A DNA stretch of 64,000 nucleotides from Pseudomonadota bacterium (GTDB taxonomy: Bacteria > Desulfobacterota > Desulfobulbia > Desulfobulbales > CALZHT01): assembly GCA_018823135.1 (NCBI GenBank), contig JAHJJF010000051.1, positions 7,674-71,673 on the forward strand, given 5' to 3'. Of the stretch, positions 3,380 to 32,073 are shown piece after piece. Each line of letters starts with the position of its first letter. The first letter of the stretch is position 1. The notes under the pieces are model-generated. The model saw only the letters and a program-made list of their open reading frames with translations. It was not told where the DNA came from and did not search any database. The translations under genes were made by a program, and so were the position numbers.

Positions 3380-4534
3380 CTAAAAATGTAACCATTCTCT
3401 ATATTGATCCGCAAGACAGTTCCACGAAAAACGCTCTGTAAGTTCATGGGCATTGTCCTTTGACAATCTCCCCTTTGCAAGGGTCGAAATAAGCGCCTCC
3501 TGAAAATCTTCATCAGCGTCATAAAGAAATTCAGCCGGAAACAACTCAGGATATGAAAGCCTCCCGGGCAAAAGCGGCCTGCAGCCGGCACGGACTGCTT
3601 CGATAACCGCGATTCCAAAAAATTCATGATTGGCAGTGGAAACTACGATATCCGAGTGCCTGAGAAGTTCGACATATTCTTTTCTTGACCGGGCATGGCC
3701 GAAATGGAGAATTCTCTTTGCGAGTAGATTTTCGGCCTGTTTAAAAACCGCCGGGGATTGCTTAAACGATTCGCCGGCGACAATCAACTTAAAATCAAAA
3801 CCTTTCTGATCCAGAGAATAAAGGGCTTCAAAAAATATCTCCGGCTGTTTATCGTGCTCCCAACGGTGATTCCATAAAATAACCGGATCATTGCCGTTGC
3901 GCAATCCTTCCTGCCGGTCAATGTCTTCAAAATCCTGGCCAGGAAACAGCACCCTGGATTTATTGCAAATCAGATGTTCGACCCCTTTGAACTTCATATC
4001 AGGCGTTTTCTTGAGGAAGTCCTTTAATCCAATGAGAAAGGTGGACAGATTGTGTTGAGAATTAAATGCAATGAGATCGGAAGCCAAGGCGGTTGTAAAA
4101 TTGGTCACGGCAAAATGATAGTCCCTTTCATCATCAACCTGCACTGGATAGGCGAATTGATTCTCATGAAAATAGGTGACAAGGGGGAGTGGTTTGGCCC
4201 AATCCGGGGCCAGGGAGCGGAAAGCCGCCACATCGACAAAGGTTGAGCAGAGGATGCAGGCATTCCCGGGCTGTTCATCCCGATGTCCCTGTTTATGAAG
4301 TTTGTCTGCGAAATACGGCGCCGCCAGACGCATGCGCCATTTCCATTTGCGGGCAGGGAGTGTATGAAATTCAAAATCAAGGTCGAGATGTTTCTCAAGA
4401 CCCCTTAAAAAAGCCTTATGGGAGCCGCCGAAATATGGCTCCAGCACGATAATTTTTTCCCGCGTTGAAGAGAGTACGGCGCCAGTCACATCAAACCTTA
4501 TTTCGGGCCGTATCCATAGCCCGGCGGAAAGCAT
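3380..4534 (-). CDS. DUF3524-type glycosyltransferase (GTDC1/QTMAN-like, tRNA-queuosine mannosyltransferase homologue)
   Basis: 384-aa ORF. The N-terminal IIVLEPYFGGSHKAF block is typical of DUF3524, and the C-terminal half is GT1/GT4-like. An in-frame GTG at 4488 would remove the 44-nt overlap with the upstream aminotransferase. Confidence 0.75.
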   Translation of the reverse strand: MLSAGLWIRPEIRFDVTGAVLSSTREKIIVLEPYFGGSHKAFLRGLEKHLDLDFEFHTLPARKWKWRMRLAAPYFADKLHKQGHRDEQPGNACILCSTFVDVAAFRSLAPDWAKPLPLVTYFHENQFAYPVQVDDERDYHFAVTNFTTALASDLIAFNSQHNLSTFLIGLKDFLKKTPDMKFKGVEHLICNKSRVLFPGQDFEDIDRQEGLRNGNDPVILWNHRWEHDKQPEIFFEALYSLDQKGFDFKLIVAGESFKQSPAVFKQAENLLAKRILHFGHARSRKEYVELLRHSDIVVSTANHEFFGIAVIEAVRAGCRPLLPGRLSYPELFPAEFLYDADEDFQEALISTLAKGRLSKDNAHELTERFSWNCLADQYREWLHF

Positions 4535-6734: not shown

Positions 6735-7826
6735 TTATTCCGAAAAAAGCGCATCCACAAACTCACTGGCATCAAAATCCCGCAAATCATCCATCTGTTC
6801 ACCAATGCCGATAAACCGGATCGGGATGTTGAACTCACGACAGATATTGACGACGATGCCGCCCTTTGCCGTGCCGTCAAGCTTGGTCAGGGTAAGCCCG
6901 GTGAGGCCACAGACCTCATTAAAAAGGCGCGCCTGGGAAATGCCGTTCTGACCGGTGGTGGCATCAATGACCAGCATCACTTCATGGGGCGCACCAGGGA
7001 TTTTTTTGGAAATGACCCTTTTTATCTTCCGAAGCTCTTCCATGAGATTCACTTTGGTATGCATGCGACCGGCTGTATCGATGAGAACCACATCATATTT
7101 TTTTGCCTTGGCGTGATCCAATGCATCGTAGACCACGGATGAAGGATCTGAACCGGTTTTCTGAGAGACCACCTCGACGCCTACCCTTTCTCCCCATATC
7201 TTGAGCTGGTCAACCGCAGCGGCTCTGAAGGTATCACCGGCAACCAGCAGCACACTGCGGCCGGCCTGTTTGAATTTATGAGCGATCTTGCCGATGCTGG
7301 TGGTTTTACCAACACCATTGACTCCGGTGACCATTATAACAAATGGCTCATTCTCCGGCATGGACATCTCTCGGGACAAATCGTTGCTCGACAAAAATTC
7401 AAGCATTTTCACCTTAAGCGCCTGCCGCAAGGTCTGGGGGTTGTCAAGCTCCTTCCGGCTCAAGCGTTCCCGTGCATCTTCAAGGAGATCCATGACGGTG
7501 TCCACACCAAGATCAGCGCTGATAAGAACTTCTTCCAGATCATCAAGGAGCTCCCGGTCGATCACCTTCTTGCCGAGAAACAATTCATCAACCCGGGTGA
7601 CGAAAGAATCCCTGGTTTTTGCAAGCTGCTCCTTGAGCCTCCCCAAAAGACCAGGTTTAGAGAATGATTCTTCAGTTCCCTTGACTACCGGCGGTTGAGA
7701 CTGAGCTGGCACGGATTCCACAGCATGTTCATCTGCCGTGACAACTTGCGGGGACGCAACTGCTGCTTTCTCGGATTCTGCATCCTTGTGTTTTGTTATT
7801 AATTTTCTTTTAAACCAACCAAGCAT
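6735..7826 (-). CDS. ftsY: Signal recognition particle receptor FtsY
   Basis: 363 aa with SRP-GTPase motifs [18 protein letters not shown] and an acidic N-terminal region. Confidence 0.95.
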
Positions 7827-7847: not shown

Positions 7848-9572
7848 TCAGACGGCGAACCATACTGAAAAGGCAATAATGAAAACCGTTGTTTCCACGG
7901 CAAATTCAAGTCGGAACCCTTCGCGGAACCTGCCTTTATCGTAAAAATAAACAAGCGCCCCCTGATAGATTATTCCAGGGCCGAGCCAGTAGGCCGCAAC
8001 CGGAAGCAATCCCATCAAGGGTGCGGACAAGACAATTATTATCAGAAGTGCATTGATGACATGCAGAATAAGCAGCGTTCTTTTTTCACCGATCCAGACC
8101 GGCAGGGTCTCCTTGCCCACCAGCCTGTCACCCAGAATATCAAACACATCAAAAAGCGCGCTTCGCAGGTATGCAAGGAGGAAGACAATAATTGTCCCAC
8201 CCAGTATATAAGGCGTCACCCCCGTTGAACTTTCAAATGCCGGTACCACTACAATCACAAAAGCCCAGGCCATGGCAACAAATATCGACTTTGAGCCCGG
8301 TATTTCCTTGAGTCCTCGAACACGTGTAACAGTGGATAAGGATTTCGGAATGAACCGGACGCTGTATAAAACCCCCAATATGCTCATCCCCAGAAGCAGC
8401 AGGAAGGATTGACTTCCCATACCGAATGCCAGGGTCAGCGAACCGGTAAGGGCTATTGCCGAGGCAATCAGAAAAGTCCATCGGTAGCGGCGATAAAACA
8501 ACGCCCGGATGGGGTCATTGATTTTCTTGGAGCGCTGGTCGGTAAAACGGTTAATATTATGCATGGCAAACAGATAGCCAAATGCCAGAAAAAAATTAGC
8601 GCCGCTCTGTTCGCCGCTCAACAGCTTTCCAAAGGCATAGGCCATAAGCCCTCCACCCAGGCTTATGTAAAAATTTGTTGCAAGCAGAAGCCACAGGAAC
8701 CTATTGATTACCGGGCGGATAAGGCCGTCACTTTTCCCGGGAACCGCTTCCAGGGCCCGCACTACCCACTTTATCATCCAGGAAGGTGTTGAAGCGCCGG
8801 CAGTTACCCCGACACAATCAAATGCAGACAGTGCTTTGATGTCGAGATCTTCCTGGTTTTCGATCATGAACACCGGGCATCCCATTCCCTGGGCAATCTT
8901 GCCGAGTCTTTGGGTATTAGCGCTCGCCTTGCCTCCCACCACAACCATAGCCTGAACTTTCTCACATAATTTCCGAACTTCTTCCTGACGTTTATGGGTG
9001 GAATCGCAGATGGTGTTAAACACTTCGCCGCCGGGGAAATATTCAAGAATCTTCTGACTGATGTTCTCAAAGGATATTTCATCCTGAGTGGTCTGACTGA
9101 CAATAATATAAGGGGCGGCCACCTTCAGCTTTTCAAGGTCTTGTTCGGAACTCACTACATGGCAATTTTCTCCTGCATAACCCATGAGTCCTTCAACCTC
9201 GGCATGGTTTCTGTCACCGATGATAACCGTTGAGTACCCCTTGTTGCGATATTTCTTGATGATAACCTGAACCTTGACAACTCTCGGGCAGGTGGCATCC
9301 TGGACCCTGGCGCCGGAAGCGATCAGCTGCTGTTTCAGGGCCGGCGGAATACCATGGGCCCGGATAATAATTGTTCCCTCGCCCTTTTCAGGAACGTGAT
9401 CCAGAACCCGGACGCCTCGTTCATTGAGGAGATCCAGAACCTGTGGATTATGAATGAGCGGCCCGAACGTGGCAATGCCCTCATCCTCCTTCCGGACAAT
9501 TTCAATGGTGGTTTCCACTGCTCGTCGAACGCCCATGCAGAATCCGGCATGGGCTGCAAGAATAACTTCCAT
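7848..9572 (-). CDS. ispH: 4-hydroxy-3-methylbut-2-enyl diphosphate reductase (IspH/LytB) fused to a C-terminal UbiA-like polytopic membrane domain
   Basis: 574 aa. Residues 1 to about 277 are a full IspH with three cluster Cys (FCMG, ATCP, ICDS). Residues from about 285 to 574 are multi-TM, with DVFDILGDRLVGKETLP (UbiA second Asp-rich motif) and NRFTDQRSKKINDP at the first-motif position. Confidence 0.85.
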   Translation of the reverse strand: MEVILAAHAGFCMGVRRAVETTIEIVRKEDEGIATFGPLIHNPQVLDLLNERGVRVLDHVPEKGEGTIIIRAHGIPPALKQQLIASGARVQDATCPRVVKVQVIIKKYRNKGYSTVIIGDRNHAEVEGLMGYAGENCHVVSSEQDLEKLKVAAPYIIVSQTTQDEISFENISQKILEYFPGGEVFNTICDSTHKRQEEVRKLCEKVQAMVVVGGKASANTQRLGKIAQGMGCPVFMIENQEDLDIKALSAFDCVGVTAGASTPSWMIKWVVRALEAVPGKSDGLIRPVINRFLWLLLATNFYISLGGGLMAYAFGKLLSGEQSGANFFLAFGYLFAMHNINRFTDQRSKKINDPIRALFYRRYRWTFLIASAIALTGSLTLAFGMGSQSFLLLLGMSILGVLYSVRFIPKSLSTVTRVRGLKEIPGSKSIFVAMAWAFVIVVVPAFESSTGVTPYILGGTIIVFLLAYLRSALFDVFDILGDRLVGKETLPVWIGEKRTLLILHVINALLIIIVLSAPLMGLLPVAAYWLGPGIIYQGALVYFYDKGRFREGFRLEFAVETTVFIIAFSVWFAV

Positions 9573-9630
9573 ATTACTTTGGCTTACGATTTATAGATTA
9601 TAAAGTATGTGTATTTGCAGTTTTAAAAAT

Positions 9631-9844
9631 TGTCGGACTCGCAAAAAGCACTCGTCGGACGCGTATTTCTCCTGCAACTTATTAAAATTACAGGTGGCGA
9701 TAATTCAGAATCCGGATTTTTGCGAACCCAGCAATTTTGTCGGACTCGCAAAAAGCACTCGTCGGACGCGTATTTCTCCTGCAACTTATTAAAATTACAG
9801 GTGGCGATAATTCAGAATCCGGCTTTTTGCGAACCCAGCAATTT
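9631..9844 (-). repeat. Tandem duplication of a 107-bp structured intergenic element (2 full copies, 1 mismatch) in the ispH 5' region
   Basis: 9631-9737 and 9738-9844 are identical except A9716 versus C9823. Partial related sequence flanks both ends. The strand is assigned from G.U-only pairings (see findings). Confidence 0.9.
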
Positions 9845-10083
9845 TGCGAAGACTTTAAACATAAACACTTGCTATTGCAAGTGGCATATATGACGCTCTT
9901 TACCCGATGAGATTTAAGTTTTTTCAGCCCGCCCAAAATGTTTTTTAAAATAGAAGATTTACAATCCTTCCTTTAAGTGCATATAGTTATAATAACAAAC
10001 AATGTTTAACAGGATCCGGTTATCAACTTGATTCACCGGAATTATCTCAAAATACAGCATTTACAGTGATAAGGAGGTGCGGC

Positions 10084-10332
10084 ATGTTTACAAAAGAAGA
10101 GTTATGCAAAAAAATTGCGACAGTATTTCCTGATATCGGCCAATGCGGTATTGATGTTAAAGTTGACTTTGAGGGAATAAACAACGCATGGGTCGTTGAT
10201 CTTACCAAAGACAAACACAACCTCAAGACCTATCTGGAGGAAAATGAAGCCAACGACTGCATGAATGGGAAGCAATGCGTTTCCCTGGGATTGCAGATCG
10301 CCCAACTTCGAAAAAATATTGAGATGACCTGA
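10084..10332 (+). CDS. Small hypothetical protein (82 aa)
   Basis: AAGGAGG RBS 6 nt upstream of the ATG at 10084. Protein-like composition; family not recognised. Confidence 0.55.
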   Translation: MFTKEELCKKIATVFPDIGQCGIDVKVDFEGINNAWVVDLTKDKHNLKTYLEENEANDCMNGKQCVSLGLQIAQLRKNIEMT

Positions 10333-21310: not shown

Positions 21311-21410
21311 TGTCGGCATCGTAATAAGCACGATCCCGACGTCTATCCCGCTTATAAATTAATGTAATTACCGGGGGCGATAATTCAGCATCTGACATAT
21401 CTCGGGGTCA
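21311..21410 (-). repeat. Copy of the ~100-bp structured intergenic element family, about 270 nt upstream of leuC
   Basis: TGTCGGCATCGTAATAAGCACGATCCCGACGTCTATCCCGC...GGGGCGATAATTCAGCATCTGAC aligns block-for-block with 9631-9737. Confidence 0.75.
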
Positions 21411-28912: not shown

Positions 28913-30217
28913 TCAATGAGTTGCACAGGTTAGACACGGGTCAAACATCCGGATACATCTGCCAATCTGCTTTTCCCCCTGCGGTGAAATACTATTTCCA
29001 GAGATATGACCTTGCGCCAGATCCCTTAAAACCATATTGATATAGGCATTATTAAATTGCGTTGCAACCAGAAGTCGTAACCGCTCGATCTTTCCCCTAT
29101 TCACCAGATAACTATGAACCAGCACTCCACGTGGCGCTTCAACAATTCCGATGCCACGGCCGCTCACATCAAAATCAATCTCCGGTGTGGCAAGGTCCTG
29201 CAATTTTATTTTCTTGAGTAGCGCAAGGATCTGTTTTGCTGAAAGAAATATCTCAAGCAGGCGGGCAGTATCAAAGCTGTCCAAATATGTTGTCACATTC
29301 TGCTTGAGGTGTTTGGTGATTCCAAGGTCTTTGAGGTCTTCGTCCTGAAGTACGCCATTATCCTGATAGACTCGTGACAACGGTCCGACAAGAAGAATTC
29401 CCCCAGGAAATCCCATATGGGTGAGATAGGGGAATTTTGCAAATGACCAATCAACCCGAAGCTCGGAGATATGGTCTTCAAGGGAATCGCCGGAAAATTC
29501 CTGACAAACCTTGCCCTGGTCGTCAAAAACCCTGAATTTTTCCCGGCCTGGACGTCCATCATATGTAAGGAAATTAACCCGTTGCCCGGCAGGATAAGGA
29601 ATGCTGTTATGCCCGTAATGATCTTTATCAAGAGTGGAAATCAGGTGGTAGGTGGTTGCTTTAATCTCGGCCGCAATCCGTTTAATTTCATTCAGTTCCT
29701 CTTCAGTGGGCAGAATATTAAACCGGCCGACGGCCATGGACACGGGATGCACAGCGCGTTTGCCGACGATTTCGATGATGCGGTTCCCTGCTTTTCTCAG
29801 GAAAAATGCATCCTCGGCAACTTTAGGATACATCTTTTTCAGATCAAAAAGCCCCTTTGATGAACCAATCAGATCGGGATAAGTCAGAAAAAAATAACTC
29901 AAGGCGTGGCTGCTGATTCTCTCTCCCAGAAGGGCAACCTGCCGAAGCATGTCAACCGAGGGTTCCACCTCGAGGCCCAGGGCATTTTCAACCGCCCTGA
30001 AACCAGCAACCTGATGCGCTGTACTGCATAATCCGCAGATTCTGGAAATGATATGCGGCGCCAGCTCGATACGTTTGCCAATCATGATTTTTTCAAATGC
30101 TCTGAAATCCTGGACCATGAAACGCGCCGCCTTAAGCTCGCCATCTTCCACCTCAATATGGATGTCAGCATTCCCTTCAATCCGCGTTGCTTTTTGAAGA
30201 ACTATTTCCCTGCTCAC
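28913..30217 (-). CDS. [NiFe]-hydrogenase large subunit (group-3-like), no C-terminal extension
   Basis: 434 aa with N-terminal RICGLCSTAH and C-terminal DPCLTCATH followed directly by the stop codon. The GTG start overlaps the small-subunit stop (GTGA). Confidence 0.9.
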   Translation of the reverse strand: MSREIVLQKATRIEGNADIHIEVEDGELKAARFMVQDFRAFEKIMIGKRIELAPHIISRICGLCSTAHQVAGFRAVENALGLEVEPSVDMLRQVALLGERISSHALSYFFLTYPDLIGSSKGLFDLKKMYPKVAEDAFFLRKAGNRIIEIVGKRAVHPVSMAVGRFNILPTEEELNEIKRIAAEIKATTYHLISTLDKDHYGHNSIPYPAGQRVNFLTYDGRPGREKFRVFDDQGKVCQEFSGDSLEDHISELRVDWSFAKFPYLTHMGFPGGILLVGPLSRVYQDNGVLQDEDLKDLGITKHLKQNVTTYLDSFDTARLLEIFLSAKQILALLKKIKLQDLATPEIDFDVSGRGIGIVEAPRGVLVHSYLVNRGKIERLRLLVATQFNNAYINMVLRDLAQGHISGNSISPQGEKQIGRCIRMFDPCLTCATH

Positions 30218-32073
30218 CTGACCCTCATTTTATTAATTTCATTGGAGACCATATCCTGTCTGAGGCTGAATAAGCCGTATTCCTGTTGCTGCAGTTTTTT
30301 TGCAATCTTACGGACATCCTTACGCTCCAGATTGCATCTCTTGGTCAATGAGTCGATGACCACTTCACCATAAGATGATCCATCATATAATTTTTTAAAA
30401 ACCATGTCAGATGGACCTCTGCATCCCCAACAGGACAAACCGTTTTTAGTACAGACGCCGCCGCAACCGCCGCGGGTGAGAAATCCCAGGCAGATCATGC
30501 CATTGGAAACGAAACAGATATTGCTGTCGTCGCTTGCAGAAAACGACTGCAGAGAATTTGAATTATTCCTGGTCACCTTCCGACCGCATTCAGCGCAAAC
30601 CACAGGTGCCACCTTTGGAAATTTTTCGCCATTCATTTCGGAGATGAGATCCATCAAAAGTCGAGGCTGGGGCGGGCAGCCGGCTAAAAAAAAGTCGACC
30701 CTGACATAATTTTCAAGATTCCTGGCTCGCCTGAGGAGGCTGACCCCTCTTTCCTGGTAGGTTGTTTGCAGATCTATGCCGCCCTTGCCTGAAAGATAAT
30801 AAGAAAAAGCATCATGGGCCATGCCATAGGTCTCCTCAATCAGCTCCTCAAGTTCAAAGCGATTGGCCATAGCCGGGACTCCTCCGGTTGCGGCGCAGGT
30901 TCCCCAGGCAATGAGAATTCGAGACTTGTTTCTAGCTTCTTCCAGAATATTCACATCATCTTTAAGACGGACCGCGCCTTCCACCAAGGCAATGTCAACT
31001 TCGGGTATTTCGTCCTGATCCAGAAGCATCGGGCAGTAAACGATTTCCACATTACTCTTAAGCAGTTCATCAAACACCGGGTCATCAATAAGCACTGCAG
31101 AGCACCCCGAGCAGGAAGACAGAGATATCATCGCGATTTTTATGGTTTGCTTTTTGCTGACTAGCGCGCCCCAATTCTGCGGGATAAGGGTGGAGGCCAT
31201 ATACGGGTTGGCGAGCAGAGCATTCTGCCTTCTTAATCGTAAAATCAGAGACTGGAGAATATGAAGGGCGAGTTCGGGTTTTTTTCGAATCTTTTCAAAA
31301 AATTCATCCTGGCTCAACGATACCAACAAAGTCTTTGAGGTAGCCAGAGCAGTGGCTGTTCTCTTGCAACCGCTGATAGTTGCCATCTCTCCAAAAAAAC
31401 CACCGGGGCCAAGAGTGGTGAGCACACATTTTTCTTTTCCGGATTGAATACTTACCTCGATAGAACCTTGTGCAACAAAAAACATAGACTTGGCAGACTC
31501 CCCTTCTTCAAAAATAACCTGGCCCTGCTCCACCCACTCCTCATTGCCTTCAGCATTCCAGATTTTCGAAATGTCTTTAACGGAAATGTCATTCCAGAGA
31601 ATTCCCTGGAAATCCTTTGTCCCGGTGCTGACCATTTTTGAAATGAGGGCACCGGGGCTTAACTCCTGGCTCATACCGAGAGCCAGACGCAGTGTTTCAT
31701 TTTCCACTGCCACTTCCCTGACTTTCTGACTGGATTGGTGTATACGCAGAATAATGCCGCGAAGCAGATGCAGAGAAACACCTGAGTCCTGCCGCATCTT
31801 TTCAAGAAGTGCTTCCCTGGTAAAACAAAGAAGTCGAGTTCGCTCGATTGCTTTGACGGTTGTAAGACGAAGATGGTCGGGAAGCAAGGCAACTTCACCA
31901 AAAAATTCCCCCTTTTCAAGAATGCAGAGGGAGACATTCTCCTCACCTCTCTTGTGGGAAACTTCAACCGCGCCGGATTGGATGATATACAATGAATCGC
32001 CAGAATCATCCTGCTTATATATCACTTTACCTTTTTCATATACGGCACCAAAAAGGTCTTCACCCGCGTTCAT
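30214..32073 (-). CDS. Fusion protein: two cyclic-nucleotide-binding domains plus [NiFe]-hydrogenase small subunit
   Basis: 619 aa. Residues about 1-290 hold two cNMP-binding domains (FGEVALLPDHLRLTTVKA and FFGEMATISGCKRTATALA). From about residue 308 there is a small subunit with SSCSGC, GTCAATGG and AGCPP cysteines, plus distal-cluster cysteines CAEC, GGCGGVC and CWGCRGP. Confidence 0.85.
   Translation of the reverse strand: MNAGEDLFGAVYEKGKVIYKQDDSGDSLYIIQSGAVEVSHKRGEENVSLCILEKGEFFGEVALLPDHLRLTTVKAIERTRLLCFTREALLEKMRQDSGVSLHLLRGIILRIHQSSQKVREVAVENETLRLALGMSQELSPGALISKMVSTGTKDFQGILWNDISVKDISKIWNAEGNEEWVEQGQVIFEEGESAKSMFFVAQGSIEVSIQSGKEKCVLTTLGPGGFFGEMATISGCKRTATALATSKTLLVSLSQDEFFEKIRKKPELALHILQSLILRLRRQNALLANPYMASTLIPQNWGALVSKKQTIKIAMISLSSCSGCSAVLIDDPVFDELLKSNVEIVYCPMLLDQDEIPEVDIALVEGAVRLKDDVNILEEARNKSRILIAWGTCAATGGVPAMANRFELEELIEETYGMAHDAFSYYLSGKGGIDLQTTYQERGVSLLRRARNLENYVRVDFFLAGCPPQPRLLMDLISEMNGEKFPKVAPVVCAECGRKVTRNNSNSLQSFSASDDSNICFVSNGMICLGFLTRGGCGGVCTKNGLSCWGCRGPSDMVFKKLYDGSSYGEVVIDSLTKRCNLERKDVRKIAKKLQQQEYGLFSLRQDMVSNEINKMRVR

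Follow-up and report, generated by a model that had tools for sequence, protein, structure and literature searches.

We analyzed a stretch of DNA of 64,000 nucleotides (nt) from a Desulfobulbales bacterium (hereafter, the window; contig JAHJJF010000051.1), concentrating on an ispH-ubiA fusion gene in which the isoprenoid enzyme IspH is joined to a membrane domain resembling the UbiA prenyltransferases. IspH is the last enzyme of bacterial isoprenoid-precursor synthesis, and it is both essential and a drug target. The gene occupies positions 7848 to 9572 of the window on the minus strand, as do all of its parts described below, and it forms one open reading frame (ORF) with an ATG start, 574 codons, and a stop. 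An earlier note on this DNA had described a single 574-amino-acid (aa) ORF at these positions, and Pfam and NCBIfam matches agreed with that description. We divided the product into three parts: an IspH (LytB) domain at residues 1 to 278 (8739 to 9572), delimited by PF02401, TIGR00216, and alignments to Aquifex aeolicus IspH (PDB 3dnf) and Escherichia coli IspH; a linker, GKSDGL, at residues 279 to 284 (8721 to 8738), placed from the translation and from the secondary structure of a full-length model; and a UbiA-fold membrane domain at residues 285 to 574 (7851 to 8720), identified by PF01040, a structural model, Foldseek, and a charge tally. The window encodes Ala at residue 336 (8565 to 8567), where the database representative reported as 100% identical (P0001) has Ser; the gene is thus near-identical, but not identical, to the sequence from that metagenome-assembled genome (MAG).

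The IspH half matched PF02401 (LYTB) over residues 3 to 274 with an E value of 9.5e-88 and a score of 294.4 bits against a cutoff of 24.5, covering profile positions 1 to 266 of 267. It also scored 266.9 bits with the NCBIfam equivalog model TIGR00216 (ispH_lytB), whose trusted cutoff is 187.85, and it aligned with A. aeolicus IspH at an E value of 1.6e-55. The E. coli enzyme holds its 4Fe-4S cluster through C12, C96, and C197, and its substrate-binding and catalytic residues are H41, H74, H124, E126, T167, S225, N227, and S269. In our alignment, C12 (9537 to 9539), C95 (9288 to 9290), and C189 (9006 to 9008), the same three cysteines that the earlier note had counted, fell on the cluster ligands, and H41, H73, H123, E125, T161, S217, N219, and S261 occupied the matching motifs. 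Judged by these models and alignments, residues 1 to 278 are a complete IspH. The best-scoring model for this half was NF000907 (304.7 bits, profile positions 1 to 277), which describes the bifunctional IspH/30S ribosomal protein S1 of Firmicutes and others. Like the fusion studied here, IspH-RPS1 is a C-terminal extension of a short-type IspH in anaerobes, and it is also treated in PMC4746011; however, its partner consists of soluble RNA-binding S1 repeats rather than a membrane enzyme, and our score lies below the family cutoff of 624.

The membrane half matched PF01040 (UbiA) over residues 307 to 546 (E = 4e-13; 49.7 bits, gathering cutoff 34.2; profile positions 8 to 234 of 250). An AlphaFold2 model of the C-terminal 295 residues reached a mean predicted local distance difference test score (pLDDT) of 91.4 and a predicted template modeling score (pTM) of 0.90. 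It placed a short interfacial helix ahead of nine transmembrane (TM) helices, at residues 301-319, 324-344, 364-385, 387-403, 427-445, 454-477, 496-516, 525-545, and 553-573, and in the full-length model the linker of about six residues connected the last IspH helix directly to the first helix of the membrane domain. When we searched the PDB with Foldseek, the top matches were all of the UbiA family: the best was AfUbiA of Archaeoglobus fulgidus (4tq3; E = 7e-6, TM-score 0.63), the second was MjDGGGPS (7bpu and 6m31), and the others were ApUbiA (4od4 and 4od5) and UBIAD1 (8djk). A profile of the family, compared with PDB sequences, returned AfUbiA as its sole match (E = 0.047). By family models, predicted fold, and motifs, residues from about 285 to 574 are a nine-TM domain of the UbiA superfamily, in line with the earlier note's assignment and at odds with its caveat that this half might lack UbiA similarity.

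The predicted inner loops of the membrane domain contain 19 Lys and Arg residues and the outer loops none, which places the IspH domain, together with the motif-bearing loops between TM2 and TM3 and between TM6 and TM7, in the cytoplasm. This cytoplasmic placement of the Fe-S domain and both motif loops matches what a hand-over of substrate from one half to the other would need.

Distribution and relatives of the fusion

Rao, O'Dowd, Li, Wang, and Oldfield (2015; Chem Sci 6:6813, PMC4746011) reported 47 IspH-UbiA fusions, mainly from Desulfobacterales, and termed them 'Rosetta stone' proteins. Those proteins share with ours the order of an N-terminal IspH and a C-terminal nine-TM UbiA-like domain, a length of about 575 aa, a sulfate-reducing Desulfobacterota host, and the same logic of precursor supply combined with holding at the membrane. 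The authors modeled the Desulfobacula toluolica fusion on ApUbiA, assigned the UbiA part to the CDD family PT_UbiA_5 with its function unassigned, and noted a separate MenA/UbiA homologue in the organisms that carry the fusion. In their proposal, IspH is localized to the membrane by the UbiA half, which uses the isoprenoid diphosphates made nearby. The fusion and its 'Rosetta stone' interpretation, which the earlier note had reached as well, were therefore already published in 2015, and the window gene is a member of a described class. A full-text literature search found no later functional work on IspH-UbiA fusions, the later mention being a citation, so the note's concern that the protein might already be functionally characterized was not borne out.

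At least 120 close homologues (57 to 66% identical, 563 to 619 aa) all carried both PF02401 and PF01040. When we searched the membrane half alone against 1.84 billion cluster representatives, we obtained 1,241 matches at E ≤ 1e-3. Among the best 150 of these, every protein of at least 540 aa (88 of 88) carried an IspH domain, and those of intermediate length were N-terminally truncated fusions. Eighty-six of the 88, those of 555 to 660 aa, formed 49 groups at about 42% identity when combined with the query. A genome scan with a closer alignment recovered 64 species-level loci, all Desulfobulbales-type, to which we added three metagenome loci; for the wider taxonomy we relied on cluster names and on PMC4746011. 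These sources place the fusion in many Thermodesulfobacteriota (homologue names include Desulfobulbaceae, Desulfobacterales, and Thermodesulfobacteriota), a Thermosulfuriphilus isolate (WP_456433625.1), a MAG labeled 'Desulfovibrionales', and Nitrospirota MAGs. A third protein search, with a profile of diverse fusions, returned mostly short fragments and no further taxa. The taxonomic distribution, which the earlier note had proposed as a check, thus takes in Thermodesulfobacteriota, Thermosulfuriphilus, and Nitrospirota, and from these sequences the IspH-UbiA fusion is old and widespread. One locus, on the 6.8-kb contig JAIWHJ010000085.1, carries the label 'Promethearchaeota archaeon' and yet holds a Desulfobulbales-typical ispH-ubiA whose halves are 66% and 50% identical to those of the window protein; this contig is probably mis-binned.

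A fused gene could also arise if a sequencing or assembly error deleted the stop codon between adjacent ispH and ubiA-like genes. Nothing beyond this general possibility speaks for such an error. L064 (1067 to 2779) is the only related locus with two in-frame stops in the fusion frame, and it represents a pseudogene or else a misassembly of that MAG. The two halves were contiguous and in the same frame, with no stop between them, in 65 of the 66 related loci that held both. These loci come from independent assemblies, and the same architecture and length recur in the close homologues and in the 88 diverse representatives described above. Moreover, the linker of about six residues leaves no space for a stop and a restart. 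We give an artifactual fusion next to no credence, and the stop or frameshift between the halves that the earlier note had named as a possible refutation was not seen.

Among the same best 150 matches, the only true standalone relatives of the membrane half were proteins of about 290 aa. Of those with a named source, the closest belong to Methanoperedens, Methanomicrobiales, Methanospirillum, and Methanoregula and are annotated only as 'UbiA family prenyltransferase'. Their best NCBIfam neighbor was the archaeal 'prenyltransferase' model NF010117 (PRK13591), at 75 to 95 bits against a cutoff of 238, and NF010117 was also the best neighbor of the UbiA halves of the window protein and of two distant fusions (P0130 and P0145). 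Together with the digeranylgeranylglyceryl phosphate (DGGGP) synthases, represented by MjDGGGPS, this family supplies the best NCBIfam neighbors of the UbiA half and of the archaeal proteins, and the group shares with them a second motif of the form D-x-x-D-x-x-G-D-x-x-x-G-x-x-T-[LI]-P, although its first motif differs and no archaeal-lipid genes lie near the fusion. Membership in the named families was rejected in each case: the UbiA half scored 26.5 bits with NF010117 (cutoff 238) and 23.2 to 24.2 bits with the DGGGP synthase models NF009512, NF009521, and NF009522 (cutoffs 278 to 353), and it gave no match at E ≤ 1 to the models of the 4-hydroxybenzoate (UbiA; TIGR01474) or DHNA (MenA) polyprenyltransferases. 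The 'UbiA'-type names carried by homologues are superfamily-level only.

We compared the constraint on the two halves using close pairs of genome loci. By the Nei-Gojobori method, the ratio of nonsynonymous to synonymous substitution rates (dN/dS) was 0.04 to 0.19 for the IspH half and 0.09 to 0.23 for the UbiA half. Across the 64 Desulfobulbales species-level genomes, identity was 61 to 74% for the IspH half and 37 to 58% for the UbiA half. Both halves are under purifying selection, with the membrane half evolving faster yet clearly constrained.

These values bear on another possibility: a separate standalone IspH could do the housekeeping, and the fused IspH half could be a diverged paralogue that serves as a sensor or as the dedicated supplier of a single pathway. 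A sensor role for IspH in anaerobes has been raised (PMC4746011), and our count of IspH genes covers the 64-kb window only, in which we found no second IspH or UbiA homologue. However, the half exceeds the trusted cutoff of the TIGR00216 equivalog model and keeps the three cluster cysteines along with the catalytic His, Glu, Thr, Ser, and Asn set. In addition, its dN/dS is below that of the membrane half, and it is well conserved across the 64 genomes in a housekeeping neighborhood that includes Lon and FtsY. We regard a paralogue role as highly unlikely.

The putative active site of the membrane half

Our best structural match, AfUbiA (PDB 4tq3 to 4tq6; Huang et al. 2014, PMC4106721), is a standalone protein only about 20% identical to the UbiA half, and we used it as a guide to which residues might matter. 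In AfUbiA, N68 and D72 of the first motif and D198 and D202 of the second hold two Mg2+ ions, D76 is too distant for Mg binding, K146 and R22 contact the diphosphate, and Y139, present in 97% of the family, is the most conserved UbiA-family residue (PMC4106721). Its natural substrates, like those of the fusion, are not established.

We located both Asp-rich motifs where the earlier note had placed them, and both of the peptides that it quoted are present. The first, NRFTDQRSKKINDPIR (residues 341 to 356; 8505 to 8552), spans the end of TM2 and the loop between TM2 and TM3 and includes N341, D345, K349, N352, D353, P354, and R356. It did not fit the canonical NxxxDxxxD pattern, reading N341-x-x-x-D345-x-x-x-K349; the last Asp is replaced, as the note had observed. 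The second, DVFDILGDRLVGKETLPVWIG (residues 475 to 495; 8088 to 8150), lies at the end of TM6 and in the loop between TM6 and TM7 and includes D475, D478, D482, G486, E488, T489, P491, and G495. Between them lie Y403, followed by S404, at the end of TM4 (8364 to 8366), and a family-specific motif in the loop between TM4 and TM5, L421-K422-E-I-P425-G-S427-K428 (8289 to 8312). A HMMER alignment paired AfUbiA D198 and D202 with D478 and D482, Y139-S140 with Y403-S404, and K146-x-x-P149 with K422-x-x-P425. N68, D72, and D76 were paired with N341, D345, and K349 through an alignment with archaeal relatives that keep N-R-K-T-D-x-x-E-D, rather than by coordinates. By alignment, then, the equivalents of all four Mg ligands (N341, D345, D478, and D482) are present, along with Y403 and K422. 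Since AfUbiA D76 is too far from Mg to bind it, the residue lost from the first motif here, where AfUbiA keeps D76 and the fusion has K349, would be the one that does not ligate Mg. For AfUbiA R22 we saw no clearly conserved equivalent family-wide, but sequences of the Desulfobulbales clade conserve a Lys or Arg at position 291.

In 47 Desulfobulbales-type sequences, N341 and D482 were invariant, position 345 was Asp in 44 and Glu in 2, and position 478 was acidic in all 47 (Glu in 36, Asp in 11). The third Asp of the first motif was replaced by Lys or Gln in 40 of these 47, and it was missing from 71 of 87 diverse fusion clusters. Rao et al. (2015) wrote of two DXXXD repeats; by our count most members have a relaxed first motif. 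Other positions were kept far more strictly across the 87 clusters: 482 was Asp in all 87, 403 was Tyr in 86, 428 was Lys or Arg and 488 was Glu or Asp in all 87, and Gly occupied 486 in 85. Taken as a set, Y403, K422, K428, D482, G486, and E488 were each kept in at least 71 clusters, and all except K422 in at least 84.

The standalone archaeal relatives carry the full first motif in 29 of 29 cases, and they share the motif of the loop between TM4 and TM5, with the exception of S427, as well as that of the loop between TM6 and TM7. Given that these relatives have no IspH, we infer that the motifs in the loops between TM4 and TM5 and between TM6 and TM7 are not merely a docking surface for it. 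Compared with the archaeal clade, the fusions have changed from Asp to Lys or Gln at 349, from His or Arg to Asp at 353, from Lys or Arg to Glu at 488, and from Asn or Ala to Arg at 470; in addition, a hydrophobic residue has become Ser at 427, and Tyr has become His at 338. The charge changes are reciprocal (349 with 353, and 488 with 470), and this pattern looks like a remodeled site rather than a decaying one. Such remodeling suggests an altered substrate.

Gene neighborhood and other features of the window

On the same strand and 22 nt downstream of ispH-ubiA lies ftsY, which encodes the signal recognition particle receptor (6735 to 7826, minus strand; Pfam SRP54), and beyond it are genes for a TerB-DnaJ membrane protein and a class I/II aminotransferase. 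Upstream are an 88-aa ORF, a divergent LPG_synthase_C-like gene, and then Lon on the ispH-ubiA strand. The order Lon, LPG_synthase_C-like, ispH-ubiA, ftsY, TerB-DnaJ, aminotransferase was kept in most Desulfobulbales loci for which flanks were available (64 genome loci), and it was not seen in Thermosulfuriphilus, in Nitrospirota, or in the 'Desulfovibrionales' MAG. Because the order is absent from the distant fusions, we read this neighborhood as lineage synteny rather than as a functional cluster, and we rejected ftsY as a functional partner, its linkage being confined to Desulfobulbales. The archaeal standalone relatives adjoin FilR1-like regulators and unrelated genes, a setting that is uninformative as to the acceptor. 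A FilR1-like (PF08350) regulator was found near these relatives in three of three genomes, directly downstream at L002 and L004/L005 and about 6 kb upstream at L001.

The 88-aa ORF (10066 to 10332, plus strand) sits between the LPG_synthase_C-like gene and ispH-ubiA and has no Pfam match. By tblastn, at least 17 Desulfobulbales loci have a sequence 50 to 74% identical to it, placed upstream of ispH-ubiA on the opposite strand, and it is probably a real small protein.

The region 5' of ispH-ubiA holds a sigma-70-like promoter match, TTAAAA-18-TATAAT (9597 to 9626, minus strand), with 25 nt between its end and the ATG downstream; this match is to the consensus only, and the number of sigma-70-like sites in the region equaled the shuffled expectation. 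The earlier note had reported a tandem structured repeat in this region. The repeat is real (9630 to 9846; period 107, 2.0 copies, 99% matches), with a conserved core of TGTCGGA.TCGCAAAAAGCAC ... GGCGATAATTCAG and a modestly stable fold on the minus strand (z = -2.4), and no Rfam family scored above gathering in the 5' region. It is not, however, a conserved feature of the gene, having been found upstream of it in none of the related loci examined. A third copy of the 107-nt unit, about 71% identical, lies in an intergenic stretch elsewhere in the window (21311 to 21392), and a relative of the unit, not beside ispH, occurs in a Desulfobacterales MAG (L048, 13323 to 13395). We therefore rejected the repeat as a regulator of ispH-ubiA, on account of its absence upstream in related loci and the diverged copy elsewhere, and it looks like a small dispersed element.

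Two other parts of the window are worth recording. A 619-aa protein (30214 to 32073, minus strand) has cyclic-nucleotide-binding (CRP/FNR-like) regions at about residues 13 to 283 and a VhuG-like [NiFe]-hydrogenase small subunit at 310 to 560, and directly downstream of its gene lies one for a VhuA/ShyA-like large subunit (28913 to 30217, minus strand); on its sequence, the 619-aa protein would be a hydrogenase small subunit fused to domains that bind cyclic nucleotides. A GT4 glycosyltransferase (3380 to 4534, minus strand) carries the N-terminal domain of tRNA-queuosine alpha-mannosyltransferase (QTMAN_N; E = 2.8e-56), and a gene with the same domains is present in the closest relative (L006).

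Catalytic partner or membrane anchor

Given the completeness of the IspH half and the features kept by the membrane half, we consider it probable, at roughly 60%, that the protein is an active, membrane-tethered IspH joined to a remodeled and probably active prenyltransferase that acts on a membrane acceptor. The IspH half would be an active reductase of hydroxymethylbutenyl diphosphate (HMBPP), probably the housekeeping one, held at the membrane so that isopentenyl diphosphate (IPP) and dimethylallyl diphosphate (DMAPP) are made beside the opening of the UbiA cavity. The UbiA half would bind a prenyl (or other) diphosphate via Mg2+ held by N341/D345 and D478/D482, with K422 contacting the diphosphate and Y403 sitting by the scissile C-O bond. 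It would then ionize this substrate and pass the carbocation or prenyl group to the membrane acceptor. With archaeal prenyltransferases and DGGGP synthases as the nearest named families, a lipid-like acceptor that undergoes O-prenylation is no less likely than an aromatic prenylation of the quinone type.

Alternatively, the UbiA fold may carry out no prenyl transfer at all, serving to tether IspH at the inner face of the membrane, for instance near membrane-associated electron donors or near membrane enzymes that consume diphosphates derived from IPP and DMAPP, or acting as a regulatory ligand-binding module. Several observations weigh against an active prenyltransferase, and most of them fit this alternative. 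Most fusion clusters have a degenerate first motif: only 10 of the 87 have the full NxxxDxxxD, 47 have the Asn and first Asp alone, as the window protein does, 15 have the Asn alone, 5 have the Asn and third Asp alone, and 9 lack the Asn. Expressed differently, the Asn is kept and position 345 is non-acidic in 20 clusters, and both are lost in 4 more. The relaxation coincides with fusion, given the full motif in all of the archaeal standalone relatives, and in AfUbiA the substitutions N68A and D72A each abolish binding of geranyl diphosphate (PMC4106721). With the motif relaxed family-wide and these substitutions so damaging in AfUbiA, canonical Mg-dependent binding of a prenyl diphosphate cannot be the conserved function of every member. 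No isoprenoid, quinone, lipid-ether, or acceptor-pathway gene was linked to the fusion in the contexts we examined, including the window ORFs of at least 150 aa at 14.5 to 46 kb. The full-length AlphaFold2 model had a pLDDT of 88.0 with a pTM of only 0.72. Finally, expression of a full-length fusion failed in the hands of Rao et al., who obtained modest amounts of IspH plus a UbiA fragment only, and who also raised membrane localization of IspH as a role (PMC4746011).

Despite these points, nine helices whose cavity-facing loops carry invariant polar residues, such as those at positions 403, 428, 482, and 488, are more than a plain tether requires. The dN/dS of the membrane half indicates strong constraint over the whole domain, the four Mg-ligand equivalents are kept in the Desulfobulbales lineage, and the reciprocal charge changes (349/353 and 488/470) resemble remodeling rather than decay. 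A role as anchor, scaffold, or ligand-binding module is the leading alternative, and the family-wide relaxation of the first motif counts as genuine evidence in its favor; on balance we regard it as somewhat unlikely. The earlier note had suggested that the degenerate first motif might mean an anchor only; for this lineage the retained ligand equivalents and purifying selection speak against that suggestion, although the relaxation across the family keeps a non-canonical role open.

A more specific version of the catalytic reading is that the UbiA domain is a neofunctionalized archaeal-type prenyltransferase whose remodeled site, with one canonical Mg site and new Lys, Arg, and Glu residues, takes DMAPP, the immediate C5 product of the attached IspH, or HMBPP itself. 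Its product would be an undescribed membrane lipid or cofactor, prenylated and characteristic of Desulfobacterota and Nitrospirota that reduce sulfate. We offer this version as speculation and consider it decidedly unlikely.

To the class described in 2015 we add motif statistics, a positive-inside topology, the archaeal standalone relatives, a range that includes Nitrospirota and Thermosulfuriphilus, and the lineage-specific nature of the synteny. This new material is modest and descriptive, and the gene context is uninformative. The fused form is the standard IspH across a large and environmentally important group, comprising all 64 Desulfobulbales species-level loci recovered, other Thermodesulfobacteriota, and Nitrospirota. 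If the UbiA half is an anchor only, then these bacteria have reused a catalytic fold as a tether. If, on the other hand, it is active, the fusion points to an undescribed prenylated membrane compound in sulfate reducers and to a direct coupling of the methylerythritol phosphate (MEP) pathway to the membrane.

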